Origin: Dehalococcoidia bacterium
GTDB lineage: Bacteria; Chloroflexota; Dehalococcoidia; Bin125
Assembly (NCBI GenBank): GCA_963663235.2
Contig: CAXXNO010000004.1
Coordinates: forward strand, 480,001 to 544,000
Reading direction: 5' to 3'
Length of the DNA stretch: 64,000 nt
A program made the translations under genes and the position numbers. Within the stretch, counting starts at the first letter, position 1. Each line of letters begins with the position of its first letter. Below are positions 14,706-25,630 of the stretch, one piece after another. Below the pieces are notes generated by a model, which ran no database searches, was not told the origin of the DNA, and saw only the letters and a program-made list of their open reading frames with translations.

Positions 14706-15464
14706 CTAATATGGCCAGCCGAGCGGCTGGACACCGGTGTCGTACACCTCGACGCGGACGGGGTACACGGGCACTTCGCGCTGACCCCACTCTTCGACCG
14801 GGATCGCGCCGGCGCCGTCCGGGCAGAGCGAGATCACCACGGCGAGCGGCACCTCGGCGTAGAACTCGATGTAGTCTCCCGCTTCGGCGTTGCCCGGCCG
14901 GAGAGGGTAGTCGCCCGTGACGGGGTCGAGGCCTGTGTTCTGGAACATGTTGATGTTGTCGTGAATGGAGCGCTGGCTGAGCCCCAGCATGGCGTATCCG
15001 GCACGCAGGTTGTCGTAGCAGGTGCGCGGGTGCGTCCCGCTGTAGAGCATCCACATGTGCGGGTTGCAGTGTGCGGTGAGGGCGCCGTGCTCGCGGGTGT
15101 GCCCTGGGTTGGCTTGGGGCCGGACCGTGTCGGCGGTGCACGTGCACAGGGGACGGCTCTGCGGCGGCGTGCCCCACACCCGCGTCAAGCGCGTGATCTG
15201 TGTGCCCTCCAGCGCCAATTGCGTGGTGGCGTGGTAGTGCTCACGCGGGTCGTCGGCGTTGGAGAAGCAGGTGTCGAGGATCTGGGCCGCTTCCTCCTGC
15301 ACCAGACGGAACGCTTGCCCTGCCTGGACGCGGAAGCCGTAGCCGGCGCCGCGGGGGACCGAGTGGCTCCAGGCCGGGCGAAAGGTATCGCGGGCGGCTA
15401 TGAGGCTGCGGTAGAACTCGGCATTGAACGGCACGGAGAGGTGCAGGGGGCCTTGCTCGACCAT
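14706..15464 (-). CDS. DUF1989 (urea carboxylase-associated/CgdAB-like) protein, Cys-retaining subunit, copy 1
   Basis: [38 protein letters not shown]. Confidence 0.85.
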
Positions 15465-15473
15465 TGATCGTCC

Positions 15474-16343
15474 TCACTCTCGTCCCGCGGTCGGGACGGG
15501 CGTATCGGAGCGGACACCGGTGGCGTCGAGGTACAACGAGAGGTCGGGATAGCCGACGCCGGGGTAAGGCCACGGCAGCGGCGTGGCGACCCGGTTCATG
15601 AGCGTGACCTCGACGGCCCGAGGCGCCACCTCCGTCGCGCGGGTCGGCGGCGGCGATCCGTCGACGTAGGGGCTCAGGGCCAGGAGCACGACCAGATCCA
15701 TCTCGGCGAAGAGCGCGACGCGATCGCCCGTCAGGGCGTCCGACGGCAGCAGCTCCAGGTGCTGGCTGTACGGTTCGATGCGCATCTTTTGGAAGAAGCA
15801 GGCGTCGTCTTTATCCAGAATCAGGCGCGGATCGAGGCCGCGCGTCTCCACCAAGGCCACCATCTGCTCCCATGGGGTGAGGATGCCGGTCGGTCCACCG
15901 GCGCAGCGCCAGTGAATCGGCAGCCCCGTCCCGCTGCAGATCGGGTGGTGGCTCCCGTAGACCCAGTCGGCGCGGCGCGGCGGGGTGACGGTATCCGCCA
16001 GCATCGTCAGCATGGGCCGGTTCCGGGCCATTGTTCCCCAGAGGCGGCTGTAGCGGCTGAGGAACAGGCCCTCGGTCGCGAACGAAGTCTGCGCCCAAAA
16101 CCGCTCGTCCGGGTCCTCTGGGTTGAACATGAAGAGGTGAACGATCTGGGCGCCGTCGAGCAGCTGCAACTGCAGCACTTCACCGGACCGGACTTCACAG
16201 GCAAGGCCGCGCAGGTCGCTCAGGACCTGTGTGCTCCGCGGGATCCAGTCTGCCGCCTTGGCGATGAGGTCGGCATAGAACTGGGTATCGATGGGCTTGG
16301 GCGCGAGACGCGTGGTGTGAGACCACAGATCAGTTTGCGTCAC
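15474..16343 (-). CDS. DUF1989 protein, Cys-degenerate partner subunit, copy 1
   Basis: GAQIVH, NP.DPDERFW, SRLWG...RPMLT..DTV, FFQK, GDRVALFAEMDLVVLLALSP; RBS GGAGAGG. Confidence 0.8.
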   Translation of the reverse strand: MTQTDLWSHTTRLAPKPIDTQFYADLIAKAADWIPRSTQVLSDLRGLACEVRSGEVLQLQLLDGAQIVHLFMFNPEDPDERFWAQTSFATEGLFLSRYSRLWGTMARNRPMLTMLADTVTPPRRADWVYGSHHPICSGTGLPIHWRCAGGPTGILTPWEQMVALVETRGLDPRLILDKDDACFFQKMRIEPYSQHLELLPSDALTGDRVALFAEMDLVVLLALSPYVDGSPPPTRATEVAPRAVEVTLMNRVATPLPWPYPGVGYPDLSLYLDATGVRSDTPVPTAGRE

Positions 16344-16524
16344 TAGCCTCTCCGTTCGTGCGGCCAGCCTCGTGGCGCGACGCCGGTCGTGAGGATCTGC
16401 GCCTCCAGAGGATAGACGGTGGGGTGGCTCAATATTCCATCCTTCCGATGTCGGCTCGCGAATCGCTGTCTGATCGGATCCGATCTGCGAGGTCTAGGTA
16501 CGGATAGGGTTTGGGCCGGTACAG

Positions 16525-16559
16525 CGCCCTCACGCCTGCGCATGGGCGGCGTGAGGGCG
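16525..16559. other. 12-bp perfect stem-loop between the Rid gene and DUF1989 pair 1 (possible terminator/processing hairpin)
   Basis: cgccctcacgcc ... ggcgtgagggcg; no U-tract. Confidence 0.4.
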
Positions 16560-16823
16560 GGATGGGCCCAGGCGCGACGGTTGAAACTCTGGTAGCCCAG
16601 CGTCGTGGCCTGCCGGCGCCTGGTCGTGGCGGCTGCTCTACCGTGCGGGCAGTCCACGGGCGTCTCCTCCATCCACCGGCAAAGAGGCCTCGCTACGCCG
16701 ACGAGCCCTGAGATCTGACAGAACCGATTGCGGTTGCGTGTGTCCCTGGAACCCACAATCTGCGAGCCAGGCTCAGGCGGATGGAACGTCGACGCCCCGC
16801 ACCCCAGGCGGAGAGCAAGGCCG

Positions 16824-23842: not shown

Positions 23843-23915
23843 GCTGTACCTCCTGCTTTCATCGCTGCGTATCTCGCTCTCACGAAGCCATCGCCTCGCT
23901 ATTCTCGCCTAGCTG

Positions 23916-24686
23916 TCAAGTCTTTCGGGCTTGAGCGGGCCATCCGAGGGGCTCGACGTCGGTTTCGCGGATTTCGACCCCGATCGGGTAGACCGGCACG
24001 CCGCTCTCATCCCAGTCTTCGATGGGGATCGAGCCCGTCCCGTGAGGACAGATCGACACCACGACCGCCAGCGAGATCTCCGCGTAGAATTCGATGTAAT
24101 CGCCAGCCTGGGCGTTGCCCTCCTCCAGCAGATAGTCGCTCGTCACGGGGTCCAGGGCCGTGTTCTGAAAGAGGTTCATGTTGTCGTGGATCGCCCGCTG
24201 GCTGTGACCGAGTTGGGCGAAGCCGGCACGGAGATTGTCGTAGCAGCTGCGCGGATGCCGGCGCGTGTAGAGCATCCAGAGGTGGGGATTGCAGTGCGCG
24301 CCGTGCGCGGCGTGCTCACGCGCATGGCTGGGGTTCGGCGCAGGGCGAACCGTGTCGGCGATACAGGTGCACAGTGGTCGGTTGCGCGGCGGCGTGCCCC
24401 AGACACGCGTGAGCCGTGTCACCTGCGTCCCCTCCAACGCGACTTGTGTGCCCGAGTGGAAGTGCTCCCGCGGGTCCTCCGCGCTCGCGACGCAGGTATC
24501 GATGATCTGCGCCGCTGCGAGCTCGACCAGGCGGAACGTCTGCCCTGCCTCCACCCGGAAGCCGTAGCCGCGGCCCGCTGGCACCTCTTCGCGCGACACG
24601 AGGCGGAACGACTCCCGCTTGGCCATCAACCCTTCGTAGAAGTCGCGATCGAACGGGACGCTGATGTTCACCTCTTCGGAGCCCAT
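23916..24686 (-). CDS. DUF1989 protein, Cys-retaining subunit, copy 2
   Basis: Clear paralogue of 14706-15464 ([36 protein letters not shown]). Confidence 0.85.
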   Translation of the reverse strand: MGSEEVNISVPFDRDFYEGLMAKRESFRLVSREEVPAGRGYGFRVEAGQTFRLVELAAAQIIDTCVASAEDPREHFHSGTQVALEGTQVTRLTRVWGTPPRNRPLCTCIADTVRPAPNPSHAREHAAHGAHCNPHLWMLYTRRHPRSCYDNLRAGFAQLGHSQRAIHDNMNLFQNTALDPVTSDYLLEEGNAQAGDYIEFYAEISLAVVVSICPHGTGSIPIEDWDESGVPVYPIGVEIRETDVEPLGWPAQARKT

Positions 24687-24688
24687 CG

Positions 24689-25570
24689 CTACTCCCTCCC
24701 GGACGTGGGCACGGGCTCATCGGAGCGCACGCCCCGCTGGTCAAGGTAGAGAGTCAGATCCGGGTAGCCCATGTCGGGGTAAGGCCAGCCAGGAGGCTCC
24801 GCCACCCGGTCGTACACTGCTACCTCCACCGGCCGCGGCCGCACGGCGTCGGCGCTCGCCGCCGGGGACGACCCGTCAGTGAACGGACTCAATGCCAGCA
24901 ACACGACGAGGTCCATCTCGGCGAACACGGTCACGCGATCGCCGGCCAGAGCATCGGAGGGCAGCAAGCGCACGTGCTGGCTATACGGGTCGATCCGGCC
25001 CTTCTGGAAGAAGCAGGCGTCGTCTTTGTCCAGCACGGCCGCCGGGTCCCAGCCTCTCTGTTCCACCAGGCTGGCCAGTTGCTCCCAGCCGCTGGGAACA
25101 CCGGATGGACCGCCCGCCGCGCGCCAGAAAGCAGGGCTGCTGGTACCACTGAAGCATGGGTGATGCCGGCCCGGAACGGCGCCGTCTCGCCGCGGCGGCG
25201 TCACGGTGTCTTCGAGGATCGTCAACATGGGCCGGTGGCGGGCCATGCTGCCCCACAGCCGCCCGTAGCGCGTGAGAAACAACCCTTCTGTCGTGACGGT
25301 GTGCTGGGCCCAGTAGCGTTCGTCTGGATCGGAGGGGTTGACCGGGTACATATGCACGATCTGTGCGCCCTCGCGCAGTCGCAGGCGTAGCAGTTCTCCC
25401 GCCGCGACATCGACGGCAAGACCCGTGAACCCGGCGAGCTCAGTGGTTGTGCGCGCCGTCCATCGGTCTTGTTCCTGGAGCAACCGATGGTAGAAGGCCC
25501 GATCGATCGGCTTCGGGCAGAGATGCGTGGTGTCTTGCCAGAGTGCTTCGTCGCCCATGACGCGGGCCAA
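24689..25570 (-). CDS. DUF1989 protein, Cys-degenerate partner subunit, copy 2
   Basis: Clear paralogue of 15474-16343 (PKPID, DKDDACFFQK, FAEMDLVVLLALSP, GYPDL.LYLD..GVRSD). Confidence 0.8.
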   Translation of the reverse strand: MARVMGDEALWQDTTHLCPKPIDRAFYHRLLQEQDRWTARTTTELAGFTGLAVDVAAGELLRLRLREGAQIVHMYPVNPSDPDERYWAQHTVTTEGLFLTRYGRLWGSMARHRPMLTILEDTVTPPRRDGAVPGRHHPCFSGTSSPAFWRAAGGPSGVPSGWEQLASLVEQRGWDPAAVLDKDDACFFQKGRIDPYSQHVRLLPSDALAGDRVTVFAEMDLVVLLALSPFTDGSSPAASADAVRPRPVEVAVYDRVAEPPGWPYPDMGYPDLTLYLDQRGVRSDEPVPTSGRE

Positions 25571-25601
25571 TCAGTGGATCGACCGCAGTGAGATGATCCT
25601 C

Positions 25602-25630
25602 TTGCTACGTCCGTACGCTTGGCTTGTCAA
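25602..25630 (-). promoter_or_regulatory. Putative sigma70 promoter of the DUF1989/ABC/Rid cluster
   Basis: TTGACA-17 nt-TAGCAA on the minus strand; spacer contains palindrome CGTACG. Confidence 0.45.

Follow-up and report, generated by a model that had tools for sequence, protein, structure and literature searches.

A rare operon around an undescribed clade of paired DUF1989 proteins in a Dehalococcoidia bacterium

Introduction

Two activities have been described for the DUF1989 (PF09347) family, those of the carboxyguanidine deiminase CgdAB and of the trimethylamine N-oxide (TMAO) demethylase Tdm, and most of the family, its solved structures included, is without any. The DNA analyzed here is a stretch of 64,000 nucleotides (the window hereafter) from a Dehalococcoidia bacterium (assembly GCA_963663235.2, contig CAXXNO010000004.1, positions 480,001 to 544,000), which encodes two DUF1989 pairs together with an ABC importer and a triple Rid protein. 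We call the cysteine-less subunit of each pair L and the subunit with the zinc-three-cysteine (Zn-3Cys) motif S; L2/S2 and L1/S1 correspond to A2/B2 and A1/B1 of an earlier, sequence-only reading of this DNA. The analysis describes a rare, real operon around an undescribed clade of predicted DUF1989 heterodimers.

CgdAB, also annotated as UAAP1/UAAP2 and modelled by TIGR03425/TIGR03424 (PMC11410670, PMC12186494, PMC12623156), is described as heteromeric (PMC11410670), is often found beside an ABC importer and hydrolyses C=NH to C=O (both PMC12186494). Carboxyguanidine deiminases were delimited as the descendants of the CgdA+CgdB node of the PF09347 tree (PMC11410670). Tdm is one chain in which a cysteine-less DUF1989-like domain is followed by a Zn-3Cys domain (PMC12560246), with a GcvT domain at the C-terminus, and its site, determined by cryo-EM, consists of 3Cys:Zn, Asp and Phe (PMC13619132). 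SPO0365 of Ruegeria (Silicibacter) pomeroyi (PDB 3DI4), of unknown function, is the closest solved protein to L/S by sequence (E 2e-25) and by fold. Searches of open-access papers on DUF1989, CgdAB, the annotation names, and deiminases with hydantoinases gave no description of the L/S clade.

The conserved eight-gene operon

The gene cluster runs from L2 and S2 through a family-5 solute-binding protein (SBP), two permeases, two ATPases and a single-chain triple Rid protein to L1 and S1 (Table 1). The ten co-oriented genes and their order, as read earlier from the sequence, stand: all ten open reading frames are real and on the minus strand, Pfam agrees with every label, and the four DUF1989 proteins score 72-110 bits against the PF09347 cut-off of 27. 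The junctions in transcription order are 2, 73, 138, 12, 3, -8, -8, 480 and 9 nt, so that the 480-bp gap before L1 noted previously is there and the tightness claimed for the other junctions is not general, those of 73 and 138 nt being loose as well. Beyond these four, the genome (2.75 Mb, 91.9% complete) has no further DUF1989 gene.

In two further genomes of the family, G004 and G017, the gene order is L-S-SBP-SBP-permease-permease-ATPase-ATPase-3xRid at 65-84% identity, with one DUF1989 pair, and the cassette of a further locus (L046) agrees as far as its contig extends. The pair in G004 and G017 is closest to L2/S2 (76-80% identity vs 62-69% for L1/S1), with L2 76-78% and S2 77-80% identical to these orthologues. 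The binding protein is 82-83% identical to its orthologues, and the relatives have a second, 56%-identical copy that is missing from this genome's operon. Eight genes, L-S-binding protein-ABC-3xRid with a single pair, make up the conserved unit, and the proposed linkage of DUF1989, ABC and Rid genes is kept outside this genome.

Contigs from three public runs, belonging to three studies, span the stretch at high identity; none strictly bridges the 480-bp gap, and the contigs of each run break at a repeat near position 16700, with overlaps below 31 letters. A public protein (P0156) is the same 289-aa form of L2. One RNA run yields four short assembled pieces over the Rid gene, an ATPase gene and the binding-protein gene and none over L or S, and such contigs cannot show the level or the absence of transcription.

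The cassette is present in 3 of 65 genomes of the order, and an L gene in 2 of 401 genomes of the phylum sample, a rarity that limits its ecological weight. A class-wide search around the genome G065 returned one positive among 351 genomes, G065 itself. Four records of a plasmid collection (28-29% identity) are distant DUF1989 proteins only, and the ESM Atlas has DUF1989 clusters only. A triple Rid protein of 59% identity (P0153) and an L protein of 64% identity (P0159) are each on a contig of 15174 bases; the equal length, the one point on which this rests, suggests that the linkage of the Rid gene with L reaches a more distant organism.

Anatomy of the L/S pair

S has D63, C132, C148 and C213 in 17/17 sequences and F173 in 16/17. 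The L side is different: no triad cysteine is found in 94 of 96 L clusters and a single one in the other two (the clusters being those of at least 230 aa from 8000 scored candidates, plus 8 from another search), and L2 has S/G/S at the triad positions of the alignment. L conserves H132-H133, W145, W158, S224 and a tail with Y265-P-D, Y271 and R278 instead. S2 residues D63, C132, C148 and C213 align with the Tdm homologues L062 and L081, and S2 has the counterparts of the Tdm site (3Cys:Zn, D220, F327), with F173 equated to F327 through the NxF motif. S is thus predicted to hold the sole Zn-3Cys/Asp site of the pair, the L cysteines having been lost, and the earlier view of both subunits as metal enzymes finds no support, the three cysteines being restricted to S.

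The S gene directly follows the L gene in 25/25 cases at 20 loci from Chloroflexota, Actinomycetota, Pseudomonadota and metagenomes (3 of the S genes are cut by contig ends; a 21st locus, L054, has a lone distant homologue). Two proteins, P0001 and P0004, have L and S fused in one chain. Single models of L and S reached a pLDDT of 85 each, and at E<=0.001 their folds match only 3DI4, 3SIY and 3ORU; for 3DI4 the Foldseek E-value is 1e-21 (TM 0.78-0.80) for S and 2e-16 (TM 0.65) for L. SPO0365 is about 28-30% identical, with the cysteines kept and RCDPY where S has HCNPH.

A model of the S2+L2+Zn complex scored 0.93 vs 0.00 for the best control, with a run-to-run contact agreement of at least 92% and a partner pLDDT of at least 91; the mark for such models is reached by 116/157 solved pairs and 2/215 mismatched pairs, counts that apply here only approximately. 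In this model the L tail (263-289) packs on S residues 133-169, next to the cysteines. Two points weigh on the other side: the pass may come from likeness to solved DUF1989 structures (3DI4, 3SIY), and the controls were without S-S or L-L. With the fixed gene order and the model score together, we consider it very probable that L and S form a heterodimer, and the heteromeric pairs proposed previously are upheld to that extent.

At the locus L053, an internally deleted L-S hybrid (1579-2156), with the start of L and the end of S, lies 7 kb from an intact pair, as in a two-pair locus that lost one.

Relationship to CgdAB and SPO0365

Like CgdAB, the L/S pair consists of two adjacent DUF1989 paralogues, the first cysteine-less and the second Zn-3Cys. 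A genome with real CgdAB (G061) shows CgdA without and CgdB with the triad in the same gene order as L-S; the second CgdA reference aligns poorly there. L/S is therefore of the two-subunit design with one zinc-cysteine subunit, which supports that it works like CgdAB and does not support membership.

Identity with CgdAB was rejected: the best scores are 61 of 284.7 bits (TIGR03424) and 46 of 205.95 bits (TIGR03425), far below both cut-offs, which CgdA and CgdB from G061 and G067 pass. The tree, built with 116 of 174 aligned rows (fragments dropped and distant matches thinned; quick search, LG+G4, SH-aLRT), has an L clade of 33 rows (100) and an S clade of 27 rows (98) as sisters (94), within a branch of proteins with the SPO0365 motif and apart from CgdA, CgdB and Tdm. 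Approximately unbiased (AU) tests on 54 rows, using a quick tree with two CgdA and two CgdB references, rejected L+CgdA (p-AU 1.3e-4) and L+S+CgdA+CgdB (p-AU 3.3e-5). In the 54-row tree L+S form one side of a branch at 90, a grouping that the AU test neither shows nor rejects. Since L/S falls outside the CgdA+CgdB node, membership in the carboxyguanidine deiminases fails, and the distinction from CgdAB that had been proposed is borne out by the profile search and the tree it called for. The tree says that the cysteine-less L arose independently of CgdA, the design of a zinc subunit with a cysteine-less partner being repeated, so that such a partner would have arisen at least twice within DUF1989. 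The database label "urea carboxylase-associated" carried by members of the clade is contradicted by this evidence.

The partners of CgdAB were also searched for. The urea/guanidine carboxylase model TIGR02712 matches biotin-carboxylase and biotin-carrier parts only, the carboxyltransferase domain PF02626 has 0 matches in the genome, and the best match of the allophanate hydrolase model TIGR02713 is 234 of 511 bits, over the amidase part only; at 91.9% completeness, absence of the carboxylase and of allophanate hydrolase from the organism is not proven. Rfam found a tRNA as the sole match in the window and nothing at E<=1 within 25500-26200, and the guanidine riboswitch RF00442 has no match in the genome and none in 8 related loci. 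The pathway without carboxylase and the lack of a riboswitch in the window, both proposed earlier, agree with these searches. Thirteen other genomes were searched, 11 of them L/S carriers; real CgdAB is present in 2, each time beside the carboxylase and on a contig other than that of L/S. The earlier proposal had named nesting in the CgdA/CgdB clades with a carboxylase elsewhere, or an unconserved DUF1989-ABC-Rid linkage, as grounds for giving it up, and we detected neither.

Two other arrangements of DUF1989 genes were observed. An adjacent pair in G065 (L072:1480-2719) has the three cysteines in both members. G005, a genome of the same family as the window, has a cluster of ABC importers and three 313-aa DUF1989 genes (L028:3689-4633, 11051-11992, 12254-13330), which are closely related to one another and belong to another clade that bears the cysteines.

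Neighborhood of the L/S genes and proposed function

In 17 loci 211 genes were called, and 86 non-DUF1989 neighbors, with 5 more from L026, were scanned against Pfam and a subset against NCBIfam. Transporters and regulators differ from locus to locus; the recurrent neighbors are ring-amide hydrolases. Outside the family, 6 of the 8 genomes have a dihydropyrimidinase-like gene (TIGR02033, E<=1e-40) no more than 10 kb from L/S, where gene counts predict 0.13, and 1/15 of the other DUF1989 loci of these genomes have one (Fisher p 0.002); G064, with a 6-kb contig resembling L039, was excluded. In the two remaining genomes, HyuA-HyuB-HyuB immediately precede L/S (G062) or a PuuE-like gene is found at a distance of 4 kb (G063). 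The size of this enrichment is overstated, because catabolic genes cluster anyway and short contigs depress the control, but its direction is clear. A GntE-like aminotransferase beside L048 (407 of 525 bits) was rejected as evidence for cyclic guanidines, hemL-type models scoring almost as high.

We tentatively suggest, at somewhat less than an even chance, that L/S is a deiminase for cyclic guanidines or amidines that feeds hydantoinases, within an eight-gene uptake-and-breakdown operon. The operon (L2-S2-SBP-permease-permease-ATPase-ATPase-3xRid7) would import a small nitrogen-rich compound, which the L/S heterodimer would attack at the Zn-3Cys/Asp site of S, with L probably contributing the rest of the pocket from its C-terminal tail and from residues conserved in L itself. 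By analogy with CgdAB, the zinc-bound water would hydrolyse C=NH to C=O with release of ammonia, at one zinc site per pair. Because L/S genes elsewhere adjoin dihydropyrimidinases, ATP-dependent hydantoinases and carbamoylases, the substrate would most likely be a cyclic guanidine or amidine, creatinine-like or 2-iminohydantoin-like, and the product a hydantoin or dihydropyrimidine finished by ring-opening enzymes encoded elsewhere in the genome, where 3 dihydropyrimidinase-like and 36 HyuB matches are found. A carboxylase would not be needed, the triple Rid7 may be an accessory binding protein or a non-imine enzyme, and L1-S1 may widen the substrate range. The conversion of creatinine to N-methylhydantoin and N-carbamoylsarcosine is a known template for such a route (PMC12623156).

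Several observations weigh against this proposal. The family operon (G000, the genome of the window, with G004, G017 and L046) is without a ring-opening hydrolase, and what adjoins L/S in other phyla is no sure guide to its substrate in this family. The 15 control loci include short contigs, which lowers their count. The HyuB gene of the window (7763-9580), tried as a pathway partner, is uninformative, the genome having 36 of them. Creatinine itself is only an example, since the known creatinine deiminases are amidohydrolase-family enzymes, and Tdm, the other characterized DUF1989 enzyme, is not a deiminase.

The enrichment fits equally well a later step: an amidohydrolase or decarbamoylase role for L/S once the ring is open, its target being a ureide or an N-carbamoyl compound rather than C=NH. 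PuuE-like, aminotransferase-V and Ldh_2-family genes, all of kinds found in allantoin breakdown, occur among the neighbors and favor this explanation. We nevertheless regard it as rather unlikely: a decarbamoylase would be redundant at L044 and L053, which encode an enzyme of the M20 hydantoinase/carbamoylase family or a carbon-nitrogen hydrolase beside L/S, and the one hydrolytic DUF1989 activity described is that of a deiminase (PMC12186494).

At E<=1e-40, Hydantoinase_B has its 36 matches in G000 within 2.75 Mb and 27 in G004; with the 22 amidase-type matches of G000, families that cleave amides are greatly expanded in that genome.

The second pair, L1-S1

The sequence-only reading made two DUF1989 pairs the defining feature of the system, and this part of it fell. 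As a conserved unit the two pairs were rejected: the cassette of G004 and G017 has one pair and two binding proteins, with no other L/S genes in these genomes, and L1-S1 is situated behind insertion-sequence debris without the conserved promoter-like element. We propose that L1-S1 is an intact, diverged paralogous pair added by rearrangement, a local add-on rather than part of the core. L1 keeps 64/67 conserved columns at a dN/dS of 0.22-0.25 and S1 70/72 at 0.18-0.29, and for L2/S2 the dN/dS is 0.08-0.15, synonymous sites being near saturation. In the tree, L1/S1 fall outside the clade of L2 with G004 and G017 (99). Given the near-saturated sites and a synonymous difference (pS) of 0.51 for S1-S2, no greater than the 0.58 for S2-G004, a later duplication with faster change is compatible with this position.

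Two pairs were detected in 5 of 20 loci (the window, L039, L040, L041 and L048), so that doubling is a repeated tendency and not a requirement. That both pairs are needed, for two successive steps of one ten-gene pathway, is in our view quite improbable. The intactness of both pairs under purifying selection, the doubled pairs of the other four loci and the lack of a terminator-like site between Rid and L1 speak for such a pathway; the one-pair cassette, the debris and gene remnants flanking L1-S1, the missing promoter before L1 and a frameshifted public L1 allele (P0009), which could be an assembly error, speak against it.

Alternative chemistries

If L/S worked as the N-terminal half of Tdm does, its zinc would bind the oxygen of an N-oxide or N-hydroxy compound and the pair would cleave or rearrange it. 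The domain order of Tdm, a cysteine-less unit and then a Zn-3Cys unit, and the Asp and Phe needed by Tdm and kept in S are consistent with this, but L/S scores 21-26 bits against the NF053776 cut-off of 1100, Tdm is on the other side of the tree, L/S has no GcvT domain, and the 91 scanned neighbors are without a methylamine or N-hydroxylase gene. No longer fusion with L/S occurs among 7999 candidates, which is weak evidence in the same direction. We hold an N-oxide chemistry to be very unlikely.

Least probable of all is an analogue of CgdAB that deiminates guanidine carboxylated by a biotin-independent, ATP-dependent carboxylase of the HyuAB family, some members of which are carboxylases: HyuA/HyuB directly precede L in L038, L045, L049 and L050 and are two genes away in L042, and the genome is rich in HyuB, but neither an allophanate hydrolase over its cut-off nor a guanidine riboswitch was found in the searches described above, and the two genomes with real CgdAB keep it beside its carboxylase on another contig.

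L/S is set apart from CgdAB by the cyclic-amide hydrolases among its neighbors outside the family, and in this genome by the searches that found no carboxylase, allophanate hydrolase or riboswitch. A wider form of the deiminase proposal, on the doubtful side, is that L/S represents a third chemistry of the DUF1989 fold, a carboxylase-independent deiminase acting first in the degradation of cyclic guanidines (rings like those of creatinine or guanidinohydantoin, or of natural products) and convergent with CgdAB as a zinc subunit with a cysteine-less partner; the operon of this lineage would then give a single-chain Rid7 trimer its first metabolic context, Rid7 being a subfamily reported without known activity. 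The clade is compact and cross-phylum, with a clear two-subunit design, a strong neighborhood signal and two cultured environmental carriers, Borborobacter arsenicus CB3 (L038) and Conexibacter sp. CPCC 206217 (L041), so that a substrate screen is directly possible.

The triple Rid protein and the ABC importer

At the Arg105 position the three Rid domains carry W, W and F, and Glu120 is kept in 3/3; in G004 and G017 the former position has W, W and I or L. Among solved structures, E. coli YjgH (1PF5, E 2e-15) matches best, and TIGR00004 passes its cut-off (117 of 106 bits) solely when three stretches are added up. Two of the three domains have Trp in place of Arg105, which together with the kept Glu120 and with YjgH as the closest solved structure assigns the protein to Rid7. 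According to PMC4433059, Rid7 has Trp at Arg105, was not seen to hydrolyse imines and was of unknown function in 2015, and triple RidA fusions with three Rid domains in one chain exist; the fusion here differs in its Rid7-type domains, its rarity (3 full-length clusters among 8000 candidates scored) and its place inside a catabolic operon, which gives a handle on the function of Rid7. A role as imine deaminase was rejected, Arg105 being absent from all three domains, and with it the suggestion that the Rid protein handles a reactive intermediate in that way. Outside the family, Rid genes adjoin L/S in L038 only, among the loci scanned, and the triple Rid7 is a lineage-specific accessory.

The importer is of the Opp/Dpp type, having a family-5 binding protein, two permeases and two ATPases. 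None of the named transporter or binding-protein models of NCBIfam is over its cut-off for these genes, and solved binding proteins offer as a ligand hint distant peptide, opine and haem binders only. Both ATPase defects map to one composite ATP site, so that only the other site is canonical; they are kept as a matched set in G004 and G017 and absent in L053, suggesting an asymmetric importer.

Promoter-like element, gene coordinates and flanking remnants

TTGACA-N17/18-TA precedes L in G000, G004, G017 and L046, and not L1. The pattern, which was taken from that alignment, has 1 match in the window vs 0 in 100 shuffles, and the element appears promoter-like and conserved ahead of L. The leader behind it is too short for a riboswitch. 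A generic promoter and terminator scan was no better than chance.

Table 1. Features of the DUF1989 operon and its flanks (positions in the window)
Feature	Position	Strand	Remarks
L2, cysteine-less DUF1989 subunit	24689..25558	-	289 aa from ATG, conserved C-terminal tail; PF09347 82 bits
S2, putative Zn-3Cys DUF1989 subunit	23916..24686	-	256 aa; D63, C132, C148, C213, F173; PF09347 102 bits
SBP_bac_5, family-5 solute-binding lipoprotein	22109..23842	-	PF00496 228 bits; Tat-like signal read by eye
ABC permease, OppB/DppB-like	20951..21970	-	PF00528 + PF19300; 83% identity to orthologues
ABC permease, OppC/DppC-like	20054..20938	-	PF00528; 73% identity to orthologues
ABC ATPase, H-loop His to Arg	19127..20050	-	PF00005; replacement also in G004 and G017
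ABC ATPase, degenerate signature motif	18025..19134	-	PF00005 + PF08352; degenerate in G004 and G017 too
Single-chain triple Rid7 (YjgH-like) protein	16824..18032	-	402 aa, identical to P0151; three PF01042 stretches
L1, second cysteine-less DUF1989 subunit	15474..16343	-	289 aa; 62-63% identical to L2; PF09347 72 bits
S1, second putative Zn-3Cys DUF1989 subunit	14706..15464	-	252 aa; 65% identical to S2; PF09347 110 bits
Promoter-like element TTGACA-N17-TAGCAA	25602..25630	-	44 nt before first ATG (of L2)
Decayed transposase start, insertion sequence	16569..16726	-	five intact copies at other sites of genome, 78% DNA identity over about 158 nt
119-nt dispersed repeat	16419..16536	.	84% identity to G000:C4:708050-708167; further on C5, partly C12
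Probable C-terminal remnant of further S-type gene	16346..16417	-	ends just before L1; weak basis
N-terminal remnant of uncharacterized 170-180 aa gene	25665..25793	+	tblastn 37% over 43 aa, E 8e-4 genome-wide
C-terminal remnant of same 170-180 aa gene	14585..14668	+	tblastn 68-71% over 28 aa, E 2e-5 genome-wide

The transposase remnant in the gap before L1 is presumably IS6-like. The probable S-type remnant beside L1 has a weak basis, with tblastn giving 50% over 20 aa (E 5e-4, within 13 kb) and a hidden Markov model 6.6 bits, a score matched by 1 of 300 shuffles. The 170-180 aa gene is intact, divergent and upstream of L in G004 and L046; in the window its two ends lie on either side of the cluster with their order permuted, the arrangement expected from a circular intermediate or a rearrangement.

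Upstream of the operon, a tRNA-Thr(CGT) (26209-26283), an integrase fragment running into it (26263-26721) and a 38-nt near-copy of the 5' half of the tRNA (29328-29365) have the appearance of a decayed integrated element. Between S1 and a flavin monooxygenase gene, at about 14330-14420 on the minus strand, a weak Pfam match (E 0.0015) points to a remnant of the C-terminus of a cytochrome P450.

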